Positions 4,538 through 11,743 of a stretch of DNA of 13,376 nt are shown here, in pieces. The translations under genes were made by a program, and so were the position numbers. The DNA is from a virus: IMG/VR virus record IMGVR_UViG_3300031760_000017. One strand, given 5' to 3'. How positions within the stretch are numbered: the first letter of the stretch is position 1; each line of letters begins with the position of its first letter. The notes beneath the pieces are model-generated. The model was not told the origin of the DNA, ran no database searches, and saw only the letters and a program-made list of their open reading frames with translations.

Positions 4538-5389
4538 ATGGCAGAAATTAAAGCATCTGAAGCAACCACTGTTAATTCTATTAAAGTTTATCTCAATGAA
4601 ATTAGTCAGTATAATCTTCTTTCAAAAGAAGATGAAGTAAGATATGCGAAAGCTGCAGCAAATGGAAGTCAGGAAGCAAAGAATGCTCTGATTAACCACA
4701 ATCTCCGTCTTGTTGTTTCTATTGCTAAAAAGTATATGGGAAGAGGGCTTACTCTTTCTGACCTTATTCAGGAAGGTAATTTTGGTCTGATAAAGGCAAC
4801 AGAAAAGTATGATGTTGATAAGGGATTTAGATTTTCTACTTATGCAACCTATTGGATTAAGCAGTCTATTTCCCGTGCGGTTATGGACCAGACTAGAAAT
4901 ATCCGTATCCCTATTCATGTTATTGAGCTGATTAGTAAGATTAAGAAAGCTGAAAGAGATTTTCAGCAGTCTTATAACAGAGAGCCGAAAGAAGTGGATA
5001 TTGCGGCAGTTCTTGGAATTGATGTCAAGAAAATTAAAGAAGCGTATTCTTGGATGAAAGATACTTCTTCTCTTGATGTAGTCGTGGGAGATGATGAGGA
5101 TACCACTGTTGGTTCTTTTATTGAAGATGAGTCTGTTGCGGATTCTTTTATGAATATTGAGGATGATGAAAGAAAAGAAGCAGTTCAGAATATTCTTAAT
5201 ACCTTGAATGACCGTGAACAGCTTATTATTAAAAATAGATTTGGTATTGGCATGAATAGAGCAAAAACACTTGATGAAATTGGTAAGGAACTTGGTATTA
5301 GTAGAGAACGAGTTCGTCAGATTGAAGCGGCTGCTCTTAAGAAGCTCCGCAATCCGCGAAGAGCTGCTCTGCTAAAGGAATTTTTCTAA
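4538..5389 (+). CDS. Sigma-70 family RNA polymerase sigma factor (RpoD-like, regions 2-4 present, no region 1.1)
   Basis: Region 2 motifs are seen in the translation (LIQEGNFGLIKATEKYD..GFRFSTYATYWIKQSISRAV), with the RpoD-box-like YATYWIKQ. The region-4 helix-turn-helix is TLDEIGKELGISRERVRQIEAAALKKLRNP. Length is 283 aa. Promoter copy P4 and RBS AAAAAGGAG lie upstream. Confidence 0.85.
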   Translation: MAEIKASEATTVNSIKVYLNEISQYNLLSKEDEVRYAKAAANGSQEAKNALINHNLRLVVSIAKKYMGRGLTLSDLIQEGNFGLIKATEKYDVDKGFRFSTYATYWIKQSISRAVMDQTRNIRIPIHVIELISKIKKAERDFQQSYNREPKEVDIAAVLGIDVKKIKEAYSWMKDTSSLDVVVGDDEDTTVGSFIEDESVADSFMNIEDDERKEAVQNILNTLNDREQLIIKNRFGIGMNRAKTLDEIGKELGISRERVRQIEAAALKKLRNPRRAALLKEFF

Positions 5390-5518: not shown

Positions 5519-5695
5519 ATGACAGTTAGAGAATTGTTAGAGGAAATTATTGAAGCAGCGCCTAATAGATTGGATTCAGAAATTTATTTTGAGACACCAA
5601 TGAATGATTATTCAGTTCAATGTTATGTGCTTGATGATATAACGAGTTATGGTAATAATGATGGTCTTTTCTTTGTACTTAAAGAAAATATTTGA
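5519..5695 (+). CDS. Small hypothetical protein (58 aa) not in the ORF track
   Basis: Promoter copy P5 lies upstream with RBS AAGAAAGGATTATTAA then ATG. Translation is MTVRELLEEIIEAAPNRLDSEIYFETPMNDYSVQCYVLDDITSYGNNDGLFFVLKENI. The TGA stop overlaps the -35 of promoter P6. Confidence 0.45.
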   Translation: MTVRELLEEIIEAAPNRLDSEIYFETPMNDYSVQCYVLDDITSYGNNDGLFFVLKENI

Positions 5696-5720
5696 TTTTT
5701 AAAAAAATATATGATATAAT
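5692..5720 (+). promoter_or_regulatory. Promoter P6 (-35 TTGATT, 17 bp, TGaTATAAT) heading a tRNA operon
   Basis: TTGATT at 5692-5697 overlaps the TGA stop of ORF 5519. TATAAT at 5715-5720 with TG at 5712-5713. A roughly 180-nt ORF-free leader runs to tRNA-Asn. Confidence 0.65.
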
Positions 5721-5900
5721 ATATATATAATAAAGATAGTAGAACAGCAATTTAAGAAAATCTTGATGATATAATTTTAAAAAAATTGAAATTCACTGGA
5801 AAACTAATAAAGAACTAAAGTTTTTTGTGGCTCATATTTTTTTGATAAAGTTGCCTACCTATAAAAGGAATTTAGAAAAAGAGCTTACTATCTTGTTTAA

Positions 5901-5973
5901 GGCTCCTTAGCTCAGTTGGCAGAGCAGCTGGCTGTTAACCAGCGTGTCGAAGGTTCGAGTCCTCCAGGAGCCG
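5901..5973 (+). tRNA. tRNA-Asn (anticodon GUU)
   Basis: Acceptor GGCTCCT/AGGAGCC. D-arm GCTC-AGTTGGCA-GAGC. Anticodon stem GCTGG/CCAGC with loop CTGTTAA. T-arm GAAGG-TTCGAGT-CCTCC. Confidence 0.85.
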
Positions 5974-6429
5974 CGCCGGCTTCACGCCGATATAGTGAGG
6001 TGTTCTTCCTACCAAAAAGGAATAGTGTAAAAGAACGGTTCATAAAAGAAGGTAAGTCCCAAAGGGCACAGAAATTATGAAAAGTACGTACACGTTTGCA
6101 TTTGAGATACGCGGCTCAAATGATGCACGCCCGCGGTATGGGACAGGTCAGATTCTAGTAAGTGAGCTAGAATTGTGGGTTCAAGCCCCACTGCTGCACT
6201 TAGAGTTGATTTACCTCTTGCCAATGTAAATCTAAGCTGTTGAGGATACAGCCGCGAGCGCCATCGGGGGAGTAAAGGACGAGTGGTCAGGCATTCTTGG
6301 TGCCTGGTAAAAGTCAAGTATCTTTGAAAGGTTATAAAGGTGAAACCTTTCTCGCATCTCAGATAGTGAGAGTAAGGTATAGTAGATACCTGAGCAGGGC
6401 TGAAAGGGTGGCACCTATCTACTAAATAT
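5974..6429 (+). ncRNA. Candidate structured non-coding RNA or spacer (about 455 nt) between tRNA-Asn and the UAG-anticodon tRNA
   Basis: No ORF with an RBS on either strand. GC is clearly higher than in coding DNA. Several local helices, including a perfect T-arm-like hairpin GTGGG-TTCAAGC-CCCAC at 6175-6191 that lacks the rest of a cloverleaf. Co-transcribed from P6. Confidence 0.35.
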
Positions 6430-6504
6430 GCTCCAGTAGCCCAATTGGCATGAGGCGTCTGACTTAGGATCAGAATCGTGTGGGTTCGAGTCCCTCCTGG
6501 AGTA
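6430..6504 (+). tRNA. Class-I tRNA with anticodon UAG (a Leu CUA/CUG-reading anticodon on a short-variable-arm body); identity uncertain
   Basis: Acceptor GCTCCAG/CTGGAGT (G1-U72). D-loop CAATTGGCA. Anticodon stem TCTGA/TCAGA with loop CTTAGGA. 5-nt variable loop ATCGT. T-arm GTGGG-TTCGAGT-CCCTC. Discriminator A. The body closely resembles tRNA-Thr at 9054. Confidence 0.6.
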
Positions 6505-6536
6505 TTTAATATTTATAAATATGGAGAATAAAATTT

Positions 6537-6719
6537 ATGAAAACTGTTTATGAATTAACAGAACAAGATATTATAATTATTATAGCGAATCATTTTTCCG
6601 TTCCATTGGATTCTGTTGAACTAGAACATTATAAATCTATGGAAGGGTTCTATACAGATGAGCATTATGTTGACTATGTAAAAGGGAAAGTCACAATAGA
6701 AGGAAAAGCAAATAAGTAA
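6537..6719 (+). CDS. Small hypothetical protein (60 aa) embedded between tRNAs
   Basis: RBS GGAGAATAAAATTT then ATG; TAA stop. Flanked by the UAG-anticodon tRNA and tRNA-Asp. Confidence 0.45.
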   Translation: MKTVYELTEQDIIIIIANHFSVPLDSVELEHYKSMEGFYTDEHYVDYVKGKVTIEGKANK

Positions 6720-6724
6720 TATAT

Positions 6725-6798
6725 GGCTCTGTGGTGCAGAAGAGTAGCACGCGTGCCTGTCACGCACGAGGTCGAGGGTTCGAGTCCCTTCAGAGTCG
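6725..6798 (+). tRNA. tRNA-Asp (anticodon GUC)
   Basis: Acceptor GGCTCTG/CAGAGTC. D-arm GTGC-AGAAGAGTA-GCAC. Anticodon stem CGTGC/GCACG with loop CTGTCAC. T-arm GAGGG-TTCGAGT-CCCTT. Discriminator G. Confidence 0.85.
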
Positions 6799-7224
6799 CT
6801 AGAGGAAATGGCATCGCCTCTCTAAATATAGACTGCAGGGTTCGCCACTCGGATCAGAAAAACGAGCTTGTAGCAAGGCGTAATGACTACACGAGCCATA
6901 AAACGTGCATCCATCTTCGTGTGTGCTTATTATTATAAGTAAGTGTGGAAGAAGTATGAGTGGAAGTCTCATAAAACTAAGTTCCCGAGGCTCAAACTAC
7001 AAATCGGATTTGTCAGATAAGACATTAAAATCGACGTTAACATGGATTAGAGTTAAACTACCACTGGCATGACCAAATATTCAGGCTTTTCAATTCTAAA
7101 CAGCCTGCCTGAAGGCGCATGATATGTGGCTTTGTGGCAAACGTCTAATAAGAAGGCAAAGTAAACTCAGTTATCAGTATTTATCGCGCCTCTTGATAAT
7201 GCGTACCAAGATAAATCTTTTTAT
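6799..7224 (+). ncRNA. Candidate structured non-coding spacer (about 425 nt) after tRNA-Asp
   Basis: ORF-free and GC-richer than coding DNA. Hairpins include ACAAAT-CGG-ATTTGT and CAGGC...GCCTG. Confidence 0.3.
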
Positions 7225-7253
7225 TTGATATTTATAAAAAAATATAATATAAT
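7225..7253 (+). promoter_or_regulatory. Promoter P7 (-35 TTGATA, 17 bp, TATAAT)
   Basis: TTGATA at 7225-7230; TATAAT at 7248-7253 within a TATAATATAATAT run. Drives ORF 7301 and tRNA-Glu. Confidence 0.55.
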
Positions 7254-7300
7254 ATTATTGTAAGTTAAAAAACAATCTTTTTAAGAAAAGGAGAGTAGCT

Positions 7301-7429
7301 ATGCTTTATATTGTATATTACAGAGATGATGACAAAGTAAGACATATGACTTTCGTTAGAACTTATAAAGAAGTTCTTTTTATTCAGGAAAGATTTGATT
7401 TTGTTACAGTAGAATGTTGCGGTAAGTAA
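7301..7429 (+). CDS. Very small hypothetical protein (42 aa) not in the ORF track
   Basis: Promoter copy P7 lies upstream with RBS AAAAGGAGAGTAGCT then ATG; TAA stop 5 nt before tRNA-Glu. Translation is MLYIVYYRDDDKVRHMTFVRTYKEVLFIQERFDFVTVECCGK. Confidence 0.35.
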   Translation: MLYIVYYRDDDKVRHMTFVRTYKEVLFIQERFDFVTVECCGK

Positions 7430-7434
7430 ATAAT

Positions 7435-7507
7435 GCCCCGTTAGGCAAGCGGTTTAAGCCATCGCCCTTTCACGGCGAAGACGGGAGTTCAACTCTCCCA
7501 CGGGGTA
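7435..7507 (+). tRNA. tRNA-Glu (anticodon UUC)
   Basis: Acceptor GCCCCGT/ACGGGGT. Anticodon stem TCGCC/GGCGA with loop CTTTCAC. T-arm GGGAG-TTCAACT-CTCCC. Confidence 0.8.
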
Positions 7508-7676
7508 TTAATCGTTGATAGACAAGTATTAAAAGTCGATAAGAAAATAAAGCCGAATTACATAGGGACATTGAGGAGAGACACCTCATAGAGCGGGGGA
7601 AGATCCATAAGATACTCTAAAAATCATCTATGCAACCCTATACGGATGCGTGTGATTGAAACTGCACACTCAGCGA

Positions 7677-7705
7677 TTGATTTTTATAAAAAATTTTGTT
7701 ATAAT
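7677..7705 (+). promoter_or_regulatory. Promoter P8 (-35 TTGATT, 17 bp, TGtTATAAT)
   Basis: TTGATT at 7677-7682; TATAAT at 7700-7705 with TG at 7697-7698. Drives ORF 7730. Confidence 0.7.
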
Positions 7706-7729
7706 ATTTATATGAGAAAAGGAGAAAAA

Positions 7730-7885
7730 ATGAGAAGAATTAATTATACAGCGACAATATTAGGAACAATATTTGTTGAAGACTGGCGAGATGATGATGA
7801 AATTTCTTCTCTTATTGATGAAGACCTTGAGGATAGAGGAGTTCCTTTTCTAGAAATTAATGAAATTGAATTTGATGAAAATTAA
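7730..7885 (+). CDS. Small acidic protein (51 aa)
   Basis: Promoter copy P8 lies upstream with RBS AAAAGGAGAAAAA then ATG at 7730. The track's longer ORF from 7646 would start inside the promoter, so the 7730 start is preferred. The C-terminal half is Asp/Glu-rich; ends in TAATAA. Confidence 0.5.
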   Translation: MRRINYTATILGTIFVEDWRDDDEISSLIDEDLEDRGVPFLEINEIEFDEN

Positions 7886-8401
7886 TAATAAAGACAGATA
7901 CAGCAAGATATTTTGTAAATAAAAATAATCCAAATTTTTATACTATGAAGATTACCTGTCTTGGGCGAATAAAAAACAAAATATAGCAATGGTGATTAAA
8001 GAAAATAGTGTACATAAAACTTTAAAGAGTCCACCACACTGCGGCGGTCGGTAGGGAGAGACCATAGCAGACTACCTAGTATAGCTGGAGTCATGACCAG
8101 CGGAATTCAGGCTATAGTGTAAAAAGGGAGCCTCGAAATGGACAAAGCTATATTTATATAAATTTGTTGAAACTCTTGGCTATGCATCTACTTGTAAAAA
8201 TAGCGGGATTTATAAATGATAGACTGATTTTATAAATGGATTGAAAGCAAGATACGGTCAACAAGGTGGGACAGGCAGAGAGAGAACATTTACCCACGTT
8301 AATTATAGTGGCGATTAGAGTTGGTTACCTAGGCAAAATGATTTTTATTCAAAAGTATGGTGGTAAGCTTTGTTTCCACGCCGAGTCACTATAATTTCTA
8401 G
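7886..8401 (+). ncRNA. Candidate structured non-coding region (about 515 nt) upstream of the suppressor tRNA
   Basis: ORF-free. Begins with the conserved 17-mer AAAGACAGATACAGCAA also found at the P9 transcript start. Contains several 5-9 bp helices (GGTAG...CTACC, GCTGG...CCAGC). Confidence 0.3.
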
Positions 8402-8475
8402 CGCCCGATAGTGGAGTGGCTTAACACAGCGGTCTCTAAAACCGCGGATCCTGGGTTCGAATCCCAGTCGGGTGA
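8402..8475 (+). tRNA. Suppressor tRNA, anticodon CUA (reads the UAG amber codon); class I, amino-acid identity undetermined
   Basis: Acceptor CGCCCGA/TCGGGTG (one G-U). Anticodon stem GCGGT/ACCGC with loop CTCTAAA, giving U33, C34 U35 A36 and A37. Variable loop GGATC. T-arm CTGGG-TTCGAAT-CCCAG is perfect. Discriminator A. The anticodon arm differs from a Trp(CCA)-type loop CTCCAAA by a single nucleotide. Confidence 0.8.
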
Positions 8476-8571
8476 TAGATATATGAAAGAGAGGTATGGT
8501 CCATTGGACAATTAAGCCCCACAAGTTAGGATAGGAGTTCCCGAACCTTCTATAATAAAATCGGATGCTGC

Positions 8572-8645
8572 AGCGGGTTAGTAGCAGAGGTCAGCTCGTC
8601 TCCCTCATAAGGAGAAGGTCATGGGTTCGAATCCCATACCCGCCA
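8572..8645 (+). tRNA. tRNA-Met (anticodon CAU); could instead be an Ile2(LAU)-type or initiator-like tRNA
   Basis: Anticodon stem TCTCC/GGAGA with loop CTCATAA. T-arm ATGGG-TTCGAAT-CCCAT. Acceptor AGCGGGT/ACCCGCC has an A1-C72 mismatch. There is no run of three G-C pairs in the anticodon stem. Confidence 0.6.
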
Positions 8646-9053
8646 TCACGGATGCACTTTCGTGTAAGAAAAATGGTGCAACCTACATCTGGGTTAAACG
8701 AGGGTGTGCTTTTGGAGAATTTCTATAGAGAAAAATTCTCCCTACTAATCAGGGTAATGATTAGCCAGCGGTTTGGTAAACACGCAGCCCCAGCCAAAGG
8801 GTAGTTAAAATAAGAGGTGGTTTGATGCAAGCCTAAGCATCCAAGACGAGTGATCATAGTCTTGCTAAATGCGGGATCCACGATACCAAATAGTGTAAAG
8901 ACGTAGCATACCGAGCTTTAACTCGGAGATTCAAAGTAACGCAATGATTTGGTGGGCGTGCAGCCGCAATCCTTTATAATCTGAGCAAGTAGTTAAGACG
9001 AAAATGCTCAGTTGTAATATAGACTGCGGTTTATAGAGAATATAAGCCGCTTT
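8646..9053 (+). ncRNA. Candidate structured non-coding spacer (about 408 nt) between tRNA-Met and tRNA-Thr
   Basis: ORF-free apart from antisense shadow ORFs. Perfect 9-bp hairpin GGAGAATTT-CTATAGAGAA-AAATTCTCC at 8713-8740, plus TAATCA-GGGTAA-TGATTA and CCGAG-CTTTAA-CTCGG. Confidence 0.3.
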
Positions 9054-9126
9054 GCCTTTCTGGCGCAATTGGCAGCGCATCTGATTTGTAATCAGACGGT
9101 TAAGGGTTCGAGTCCCTTGGGAGGCT
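9054..9126 (+). tRNA. tRNA-Thr (anticodon UGU)
   Basis: Acceptor GCCTTTC/GGGAGGC (two G-U). D-arm GCGC-AATTGGCA-GCGC. Anticodon stem TCTGA/TCAGA with loop TTTGTAA. T-arm AAGGG-TTCGAGT-CCCTT. Confidence 0.8.
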
Positions 9127-9154
9127 CTACACGATAGCAAATAAGTGTATAAAC

Positions 9155-9338
9155 GGATGTGCGGTTAGCTGACCTTAAAGTGAAGTATGCCCTATTCCGA
9201 GGAGGCGATTTCGGGAGTAGTTATTTTGGTTAGTTGACGAAACTGTAAAACTACGAAATATCGGATGACCAAAAAGCTTCCTCCAGAGAACAAATGTCGG
9301 GAGGTTAAACGTGGATGGGTGGTTGGCTGACCTTAAAG
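9155..9338 (+). repeat. Imperfect 26-nt direct repeat (23/26): GGATGTGCGGTTAGCTGACCTTAAAG at 9155-9180 and GGATGGGTGGTTGGCTGACCTTAAAG at 9313-9338
   Basis: Seen by eye. The second copy lies immediately 5' of the CAA-anticodon tRNA at 9344. The first is followed by degenerate, non-folding sequence. Confidence 0.5.
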
Positions 9339-9343
9339 CTTAT

Positions 9344-9417
9344 GCGGAGATGACGCAATTGGCAGACGTGACAACCTCAAAAGTTGTATAGTTAGAGTTC
9401 GAATCTCTTTCTCCGTA
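9344..9417 (+). tRNA. Class-I tRNA with anticodon CAA (a Leu UUG-reading anticodon on a short-variable-arm body); identity uncertain
   Basis: Acceptor GCGGAGA/TCTCCGT (G1-U72). D-loop CAATTGGCAGA. Anticodon stem ACAAC/GTTGT with loop CTCAAAA. 5-nt variable loop. T-arm AGAG-TTCGAAT-CTCT. Discriminator A. Confidence 0.6.
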
Positions 9418-9421
9418 TTAT

Positions 9422-9496
9422 GTAGGGATGATGCAGACGTGGGAAACATGATAATTTAGAAAATTATTTATGAAGGTTCGAGCCCTTCACCCTACT
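9422..9496 (+). pseudogene. tRNA-like element, probable pseudo-tRNA (anticodon loop reads AGA on an all-A/U stem; acceptor has an A-A mismatch)
   Basis: Acceptor GTAGGGA/ACCCTAC with 6 of 7 positions paired. Anticodon stem ATAAT/ATTAT with loop TTAGAAA. T-arm GAAGG-TTCGAGC-CCTTC is perfect. The element abuts the -35 of promoter P9. Confidence 0.35.
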
Positions 9497-9497
9497 T

Positions 9498-9526
9498 TTG
9501 ATTTTTTATAAAAATTATAATATAAT
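9498..9526 (+). promoter_or_regulatory. Promoter P9 (-35 TTGATT, 17 bp, TATAAT)
   Basis: TTGATT at 9498-9503; TATAAT at 9521-9526. The transcript begins with the conserved AAAGACAGATACAGCAA motif and runs into the tRNA-like fragment and tRNA-Leu(UAA). Confidence 0.65.
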
Positions 9527-9579
9527 ATATATGTAAGATAAAAAGACAGATACAGCAAACTTTCTTTCAAGAATATTAA

Positions 9580-9633
9580 GTGATATGGTTCACAAATTGT
9601 CTGTAAAACAATGTTAGCTGGTTCGAGTCCAGT
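9580..9633 (+). pseudogene. Truncated tRNA-like fragment with a Tyr-type anticodon arm (GUA); no pairable acceptor stem found
   Basis: D-arm GTGA-TATGGT-TCAC. Anticodon stem ATTGT/ACAAT with loop CTGTAAA. T-arm GCTGG-TTCGAGT-CCAGT. The flanking 7-mers (GAATATT / ATAAAAG) do not pair. Lies about 40 nt downstream of the P9 transcription start. Confidence 0.3.
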
Positions 9634-9788
9634 ATAAAAGGTATAATTGAGCTGTCTTGATTAAAAAATAGCGCCGATGAAGGTCGGTTTGGGAATTAAC
9701 CCAAATAAGATGCAAAACAGGCGGGGGTCGCGCCCCTACAAAACTTCAGATATAGGCGAGGGACTGACTGAAGGGAAGCTATTTATTA

Positions 9789-10622: not shown

Positions 10623-10800
10623 CTACTATATCTTGAGCGGTTTGGAATCCGCTACTATTAATTTTATTGTTGGTTGGTTAAAATGTAGGTAAACCCATCC
10701 ATAGGGCAAGATATAATTTTAATAAGGTTTTGCAAAACTTATATATTCGTCGATGACGAAAGAAAAATGTTCAATAGCAAATGATTAGGAATGAACAATC

Positions 10801-11612: not shown

Positions 11613-11685
11613 ACCATTTGCGGGACCGGCGTATAAAGGGTCCTACCACCCGACTCGTAGTAAACATGGAACGCTGAAAGGTCTT

Positions 11686-11743
11686 GGGGAACTCCAGGGT
11701 AAGATACTCTGCAGGAGAGGTTGTGCTCCCCACTTTATTTTTT
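11686..11743 (+). terminator. Terminator-like GC-clamped hairpin with U-tract at the end of the tRNA-Ser/Tyr/Val operon
   Basis: GGGGA at 11686-11690 pairs with TCCCC at 11727-11731 around an internal CTCC/GGAG helix, followed by ACTTTATTTTTT. Confidence 0.4.

Follow-up and report, generated by a model that had tools for sequence, protein, structure and literature searches.

Conserved structured RNA modules in the spacers of a tRNA array from uncultivated rumen and gut phages

A phage tRNA array with long spacers

The IMG/VR virus record IMGVR_UViG_3300031760_000017 (hereafter the window, the whole 13,376 nt stretch that was analyzed) carries 22 transfer RNA (tRNA) genes, all on the plus strand and including an amber suppressor tRNA(CUA) at 8402-8475, and a sigma-70-family gene (4538-5389) encoding a factor with regions 1.2, 2, 3 and 4. 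Phage tRNA arrays are usually seen as devices for codon supply or against nucleases. The subject of this study is the long spacers of this array, which probably hold the genes of several small, structured RNAs that are non-coding and independent of one another, here called modules A, B0, B, C, D, E1 and E2, together with an abiF-like hairpin.

The original prediction had singled out five segments between tRNAs, at 5974-6429, 6799-7224, 7886-8401, 8646-9053 and 9127-9343, as candidate novel structured RNAs or relics of degraded tRNAs. tRNA placements by ARAGORN and Rfam bear out these boundaries, the flanking tRNA genes lying on the plus strand at 5901-5974, 6429-6505, 6725-6799, 7434-7508, 8402-8475, 8572-8645, 9054-9127 and 9343-9418. 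As predicted, the segments contain no credible open reading frame (ORF), either in the standard code or when TAG, TGA or TAA is read through. Their GC contents are 0.46, 0.40, 0.36, 0.42 and 0.43 in order; the predicted excess over the window mean of 0.36 holds for four of them but not for 7886-8401 (0.357), of which only the core is GC-richer. The hairpin noted at 8713-8740 is present and has a perfect 9-bp stem. When folding energies were compared with those of shuffled sequences, z was -1.7 for 5975-6428 and -3.1 for 8646-9053. The case that the spacers are more than chance sequence is based on conservation and covariation, not on local helices or folding energy.

A repeat search and a promoter scan revealed 12 copies in the window of a near-consensus, putative sigma-70-type promoter, TTGATT-17-TATAAT (family D1). 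The copies at 5692-5720, 7225-7253, 7677-7705 and 9498-9526 lie on the plus strand and correspond to the repeated promoters that had been proposed to transcribe the spacers together with the tRNAs. Members of this family (e.g., 5460, 5692, 7225, 7677 and 9498) head small ORFs as well as tRNA/RNA units. The promoter at 5692 is likely the start of a unit comprising tRNA-Asn, a segment designated A0, a pseudo-tRNA, module A, tRNA-Leu, a small ORF, tRNA-Asp and modules B0 and B.

Conserved modules with compensatory base-pair changes

We searched IMG/VR with the sigma protein and obtained 30 loci, mostly from contigs of 100-190 kb, in which the protein is 98% down to 35% identical; the comparison was limited to at most 21 kb fetched around each match. 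Each spacer was compared with related loci, given here by L numbers, using blastn and nhmmer. Conservation among them is piecewise, not end to end. For the stretch 6170-6428, identity is ~80% in L003-L007 (sigma protein 71-74% identical); it is 95.6% for 6800-7070 in L009 (where sigma is 67% identical), 88% for 7012-7172 in L013 (sigma, 63%) and 76-82% for 7973-8300 in L009, L010, L012 and L013; in addition, 8720-8875 has a match in L013, and 8843-8996 has matches in L010, L084, L085 and L180. The AT-rich promoter and leader DNA between the modules does not align at such distances, and module B is retained even at 35-47% sigma identity. The modules range from 40 to 235 nt in size, and in related uncultivated phages of rumen and gut their order is shuffled from one tRNA array to the next. 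Since both the order and the combination of modules vary among phages, a spacer is a mosaic of independent modules. The long segments of the original prediction are thus real and non-coding, but they are composites rather than single units.

Seven modules (A, B0, B, C, D, E1 and E2) contain compensatory base-pair changes. Module A (6200-6428; alignment A11) is a predicted RNA of ~230 nt with ten helices, and its homologues are found in L001-L007, L061, L085 and L180. Among nine sequences, 94.8% of cells are paired and 19 of the 58 pairs have changed on both sides; none of 500 shuffles reached the observed covariation, and slid controls were 35-46% paired. A loop-to-tail pseudoknot joins 6380-6386 with 6418-6424, and five of its seven pairs covary. 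A search with an exact 23-mer of module A gave no contigs beyond the related ones already in the comparison set. Module D (7979-8155; alignment A9), ~177 nt in length, is closed by helix P1 (7979-7987 with 8147-8155) and has several internal helices and conserved loops. As a loose pattern for this module gave mostly chance matches, a hidden Markov model filter was applied; in the resulting 16 sequences from separate contigs, 96.7% of cells are paired and 22 of 30 pairs have changed on both sides (0/500 shuffles; slid controls 27-44% paired).

Module B (7012-7174) was traced by pattern scan, covariance model and covariation. It consists of a 5′ hairpin (7012-7023), helix H1 (7033-7038 with 7140-7145), helix H4 (7061-7064 with 7126-7129), which carries a variable hairpin, and helix H3 (7050-7054 with 7164-7168), which crosses H1. 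A degenerate pattern made from its invariant strands retrieved 35 stretches from IMG/VR on contigs of 5-402 kb, and a covariance model (R1) run on 55 loci returned 39 matches, including weaker copies in L005, L008, L011 and L044. This module alone occurs in at least 36 phage or metagenome-assembled genome (MAG) contigs. H1 and H4 are 98.5% paired, their covariation was reached in none of 500 shuffles, and slid controls were 30-60% paired; one pair of H1 is G-C in 15 sequences, C-G in 11, A-U in five and U-A in one. H3 is formed by 18 different Watson-Crick helices of 5-8 bp among 28 distinct sequences, and because its 3′ strand lies outside H1, module B is predicted to be a pseudoknot. The strands joining the helices are almost invariant, and a few unpaired positions co-vary in a non-Watson-Crick manner, which suggests tertiary contacts or a binding pocket. 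Within the fetched sequence (up to 21 kb per locus), 35 of 36 loci contain a single copy. L011 repeats the 5′ half of the module as a tandem duplication (9485-9770), and the 402-kb phage contig IMGVR_UViG_3300032167_000002 carries the module twice (L043 and L053).

The remaining modules are covered by smaller alignments. Module B0 (6800-6961; ~160 nt) starts right after tRNA-Asp and has homologues in L001, L009 (95% identical), L180 and L064; in only five sequences, 95% of cells are paired and 17 of 36 pairs have changed on both sides (0/500 shuffles). Module C (7510-7680; core 7515-7659) follows tRNA-Glu directly and recurs in more than ten loci, L001, L002, L009, L011, L012, L042, L047, L064, L084 and L186 among them, with 91.8% of cells paired and nine of 27 pairs changed on both sides; its spacer, between tRNA-Glu and a small ORF, was absent from the original prediction. 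Module E2 (8870-8968; ~100 nt), closed by UGCGG/CCGCA, has homologues in L010, L084, L085 and L180; 98.4% of cells are paired, both sides have changed in 12 of 26 pairs, and none of 500 shuffles reached this. The weakest of the seven is module E1 (8745-8845), which has a covarying hairpin at 8745-8764 and the strongly conserved stretch CAGCGGUUUGGUAA.CACGC.GCC...GGUAG.UAAAAU; it is found in L013 (88% identical) and L084, and five of its 30 predicted pairs have changed on both sides.

G.U pairs outnumber A.C mismatches by 98 to 12 over modules A, B and D (74 to 7 in module A and 21 to 5 in module D), which indicates that the folding strand is the plus strand, the same as that of the tRNAs. Variation is spread evenly over the three codon positions in modules A (46/46/54), B (36/38/35), C (44/45/47), D (61/67/62), E2 (47/43/48), E1 (35/34/33) and B0 (31/25/22), in contrast to 70/51/121 variable columns in a protein-coding control, 2262-2660. 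No frame stays open across the homologues with or without TAG read-through, and the indels in the module alignments are often of one or two bases. These results bear on the alternative that the spacers encode proteins under a code in which TAG is read by the phage suppressor tRNA. Such a tRNA does lie in the array, and with TAG recoded some frames of module D are open for up to 85 codons; however, no TAG-recoded ORF spans the spacers, not one frame runs open through a whole spacer in any code, the indels are not multiples of three, and the RNA covariation is strong. On the frame and codon-position evidence recoded ORFs were rejected, and the probability left to them is negligible. The control region itself is GC-rich and open on both strands, and encodes a conserved 132-aa protein whose ORF is kept in all relatives. 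The surrounding GC-rich stretch (2160-2900) had been considered as another RNA and was dropped, as it holds this conserved gene with dominant third-position variation.

A further alternative would see in the spacers decayed tRNAs, mobile-element relics or junk, conserved only through close kinship, and some pieces of the array fit this description. The element at 6132-6198 aligns column by column with tRNA-Asn(GUU) of L004, and damaged copies are present in L005 and L007. It contains the T arm noticed in the original prediction (6175-6191), an over-long anticodon-like stem of 7 bp, with compensatory changes in L001, and an acceptor stem (GCGGUA/UGCUGC in the window, CGCGAUA/UGUCGCG in L002), and its stems stay paired through the changes in L001 and L002; it has no normal D arm, and neither ARAGORN nor the Rfam tRNA model called a cloverleaf here. 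A second tRNA-derived element, at ~9575-9637, has a D arm, an anticodon arm with the loop CUGUAAA (GUA, Tyr-like) and a T arm, lacks an acceptor stem, was likewise called by neither program and resembles sequences in several other loci. Segment A0 (5975-6131) matches only the closest relatives, L001 and L002, and is not supported as a structured RNA (z = -1.17). Spacer 5 (F; 9128-9342; z = -1.24) is found at full length only in L002 and has at its ends a 26-nt direct repeat (9155-9180 and 9313-9338); it behaves as an indel, as L001 lacks 9128-9274, the stretch between the two copies of the repeat. Elsewhere, matches were limited to its first ~50 nt, which follow tRNAs in L163 and L063. Folding energy does not separate A0 or F from shuffled sequences. 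On the other hand, modules A, B0, B, C, D and E2 have homologues in distant phages that carry compensatory changes, and none of them resembles a tRNA; moreover, module B is nearly always single-copy and no terminal inverted repeats were seen. Distant homologues and compensatory changes rule out decay or junk for the seven supported modules, and as an account of the spacers in general it is very improbable. The decayed-tRNA idea of the original prediction applies to 6132-6198 but not to any of these seven.

The comparative evidence thus supports well the existence of these predicted RNAs, which are non-coding, conserved, structured on the plus strand, modular and tied to tRNA arrays. The modules are 72-95% identical where the sigma factor is only 47-74% identical (protein), and compensatory changes across homologous phages back the structures of the supported modules; these two comparisons, by which the original prediction had proposed that the spacers be judged, came out in favor of its interpretation as novel structured RNAs, as did the check for TAG-recoded ORFs that it had likewise named. 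On this evidence, a widespread group of uncultivated phages from rumen and gut uses a large part of its tRNA array to encode other RNAs, conserved and intricately folded. They amount to several new RNA families whose boundaries and secondary structures are defined and whose genomic niche is of a known kind.

Comparable spacers also occur outside the five segments. In addition to 7509-7690, which contains module C, these are 9660-9788 (conserved in L012), 10633-10786 (in L006 and L010) and 11618-11740 (in L010 and L084); the latter three, kept in these distant relatives, are ORF-free, lie beside tRNAs and are probably more RNA modules. The 10-mer ATAGTGTAAA has three exact plus-strand copies, at 6022, 8114 and 8890, each within an RNA module, and a further copy at 8005 differs by one mismatch; homologues conserve those at 8005 and 8890, and the 10-mer may be a shared loop motif. 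Between module D and the suppressor tRNA, a hairpin, D2 (8265-8297; GGUGGG...CCCAC), is followed by a conserved stretch, 8302-8397, that runs into the suppressor tRNA. This region (8265-8397) was recognized by conservation only: L010, L012, L013 and L085 all conserve D2, though some letters of its stem differ in L013, and 8302-8397 matches L009. Suppressor tRNA and tRNA-Met are separated by a 96-nt spacer (8476-8571) that is kept in L001 and absent from L002, in which only 3 nt lie between the two tRNAs; this presence or absence is an indel.

The tRNA arrays of the relatives are also single-stranded in orientation, and tRNA(CUA) is present in all 13 loci scanned for tRNAs (L001-L013). L010 additionally has a tRNA(UUA) at 14099-14173 that would read the ochre codon, and together these suppressors hint at stop-codon recoding in this phage group. 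L013 carries a full transfer-messenger RNA (tmRNA) gene with the tag peptide ADNYTYQMAA inside its tRNA array (14782-15062). A pattern scan of species-representative genomes found module B in six MAG contigs, labeled Clostridia (sheep rumen), Bacillota and Eubacteriales, labels that agree with the strong Shine-Dalgarno sites and AT-rich promoters; the hosts of these rumen and gut phages are probably Clostridia.

Possible release by tRNA processing and action in trans

The positions of the modules relative to the tRNAs suggest how they might be expressed. A tRNA or pseudo-tRNA flanks module A on both sides in every locus, and its 3′ end invariably abuts tRNA-Leu(UAG). All 36 copies of module B are on the tRNA strand; 13 of them end at most 4 nt from a tRNA 5′ end, and in many the start lies 16-45 nt beyond a tRNA. 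The strong, early-type promoters predicted at 5692, 7225 and 7677 would drive polycistronic transcripts containing small ORFs, tRNAs and modules. Most modules begin or end within a few bases of a tRNA, and in one case a degenerate tRNA (6132-6198, directly 5′ of module A) seems to have been retained as a processing handle. From this abutment we infer release by the enzymes of tRNA maturation: host RNase P, cutting at tRNA 5′ ends, and RNase Z or exonucleases, acting at 3′ ends, would liberate each module as a discrete RNA. Their compact, pseudoknotted folds would make the liberated RNAs stable, and the conserved unpaired strands, above all those of module B, might bind a specific partner (protein, ligand or other RNA), so that the modules act in trans.

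The same abutment to tRNA ends can be read differently. The modules might be purely cis-acting elements of the tRNA operons, serving as leaders, trailers or spacers that guide or time RNase P/Z, protect precursors from exonucleases, or terminate or attenuate transcription, and have no function once excised. The degenerate tRNA kept beside module A would suit such a role, as would two hairpins, one after module B and a terminator-like 10-bp hairpin at 9026-9050, which abuts tRNA-Thr, was matched in the promoter/terminator scan and is kept in L084; the latter is a candidate terminator or processing signal. Yet the modules move independently of particular tRNAs, module B preceding tRNAs for Asp, Asn, Leu, Lys, Glu and Ala and following those for Glu, Lys, Met, Asp and others. 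Unpaired strands that scarcely vary and pseudoknots of 100-230 nt go far beyond what a processing spacer requires, and many tRNAs of these arrays do without one, being only 2-10 nt apart. We therefore regard an exclusively cis-acting role as unlikely.

Several points weigh against a battery of RNAs that are released and act in trans. The alignments other than those of modules B and D are small, several of them comprising 5-10 sequences from 3-5 lineages, and each structure was predicted from the very alignment that served for counting its pairs, so that the contrast with the slid controls is inflated. The folding z-scores of whole spacers are modest, A0 has no homologues beyond its two closest relatives, and spacer 5 has no comparative support beyond close relatives. 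The case for processing and stability comes from position only. Some copies of module B are more than 200 nt from any tRNA, that of the window being 231 nt from the upstream and 259 nt from the downstream tRNA, so that tRNA cleavage alone cannot define all ends. Having weighed these points, we consider it rather probable that promoter-driven polycistrons, release by tRNA processing and persistent trans-acting folds operate jointly; co-transcription with the tRNAs, excision and action in trans are each inferred.

Just downstream of module B, a hairpin at 7180-7216 gave a sub-threshold match to the Rfam abiF model (RF03085), aligning to all 37 model positions at 24.1 bits. Similar hairpins are present in L116 (8185-8221), L084 (309-350) and L186 (1770-1806), with 32.6, 30.2 and 30.1 bits, respectively. 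All four scores are below the gathering score of 37 bits, and the hairpin of the window is thus not assigned to the abiF motif. It nevertheless forms the two-tier hairpin with the conserved loop GCCUCU..A..AUGC; the outer stem covaries, occurring in four versions, and the loop GCCUCUU.A.AAUG is conserved, and such a repeated match is unlikely to have arisen by chance. No Abi gene lies beside 7180-7216, which is followed by a promoter, a 42-aa ORF and tRNA-Glu, and no Abi_2 domain was found in the ten larger ORFs of the window that were scanned. This orphan hairpin may be an antitoxin mimic, and its recurrence raises the idea that phages carry RNA mimics of antitoxins.

Phage tRNA arrays are used generally against tRNA-targeting defenses. 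More speculatively, the array could be an RNA-based counter-defense island whose modules are trans-acting decoys for host proteins relevant to immunity or takeover. The abiF-like hairpin would then neutralize the abortive-infection toxins AbiF/Abi_2, and module B would represent a new class of pseudoknot that binds a protein or ligand with high affinity or is catalytic. The sole grounds for decoys are the abiF-like hairpin and the general role just mentioned, and we hold both parts of this proposal, the decoys and the specific tasks of the hairpin and of module B, to be doubtful.

Comparison with known phage and tRNA-linked RNAs

At the gathering score, Rfam 15 detected only tRNAs in the window, and only tRNAs and the tmRNA of L013 in seven related loci. 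At E <= 10, region 5900-9450 had no match to GOLLD, ROOL, RNase P, tmRNA, 6S, signal recognition particle RNA, ribozymes or riboswitches, and the GOLLD model, including its conserved 3′ half, and the ROOL model matched neither the window region nor ten related loci. Module B searched by itself had no family match either. Apart from the sub-threshold abiF-like hairpin, the spacers match no family in Rfam 15, and ARAGORN and Rfam agree with the earlier statement that nothing here matched tmRNA or RNase P motifs. Rfam mascRNA matches in the region are true tRNAs only. In blastn searches against GenBank phages the region matched tRNAs only, and modules B and D had no match. By eye, strings in modules A and E1 resemble conserved regions of RNase P, and module B resembles the L11-binding region of 23S rRNA, the T-box and the topology of the hepatitis delta virus ribozyme; these candidates were rejected, since no model matched and the helices do not correspond.

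A catalog of ~8,500 short candidate RNAs from IMG/VR intergenic regions has been compiled on the basis of covariation (PMC10690425), and some modules or parts of them may already be included in it. Its size is also given as 10,006 candidate structured RNAs (csRNAs). The mean length of these candidates is 67 nt (29-151 nt), and no battery in tRNA arrays is described for them.

In the MALAT1 mascRNA type of system, a tRNA-shaped element that does not work as a tRNA adjoins another RNA. By analogy, the tRNA-shaped 6132-6198 adjoins module A, and cleavage by RNase P/Z could set the end of the module. The known cases are eukaryotic or viral, whereas 6132-6198 is recently derived from a phage tRNA-Asn.

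In Clostridioides difficile, the AbiF toxin is bound by the abiF motif RNA, an antitoxin that acts in trans (PMC12373285). The hairpin at 7180-7216 shares with abiF RNA of the RCd22 type the 6-bp outer stem, the bulge, the 3-bp inner stem and the loop consensus, and the likely hosts are Bacillota, in which AbiF systems are common (PMC12373285). It differs in being a single copy, as opposed to two in RCd22, and in lying in the tRNA array of a lytic-like phage instead of a 5′ untranslated region.

GOLLD and ROOL are large structured RNAs of phages and prophages, often encoded beside tRNA islands and possibly co-transcribed with them; covariation and pseudoknots back them, and their known sources include rumen and Firmicutes (PMC5737381, PMC12286853). 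The modules resemble them in location, as all lie inside phage tRNA arrays, but are small, independent and shuffled, whereas GOLLD and ROOL are each one RNA of 580-800 nt. ROOL is a multi-pseudoknot RNA of ~580 nt; the largest module here is ~230 nt. ROOL and GOLLD assemble as homo-oligomeric nanocages. It is conceivable that the modules are co-expressed pieces that join into a larger assembly, of RNA only or of RNA and protein, resembling these nanocages, given the shared genomic niche (PMC12286853, PMC5737381), the co-occurrence of several modules within arrays and the exact 10-mer AUAGUGUAAA common to three different modules. The lack of any Rfam ROOL or GOLLD match even at the permissive threshold and a module content that varies among phages, with no fixed set, speak against it; between-module covariation was not seen either, although it was not searched for systematically. 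We judge such an assembly to be quite unlikely, and continue to favor independent small RNAs.

The tRNA region of phage T4 produces a pair of small, stable RNAs termed RNAC and RNAD, whose roles are unknown (PMC3014915). Like them, the modules are encoded among phage tRNA genes and on the same strand; they differ in that the array of the window contains at least seven modules, several of them predicted to be pseudoknotted, of 100-230 nt. The link between structured RNAs and phage tRNA islands that is known from GOLLD, ROOL and T4 RNAC/RNAD would thereby be widened.

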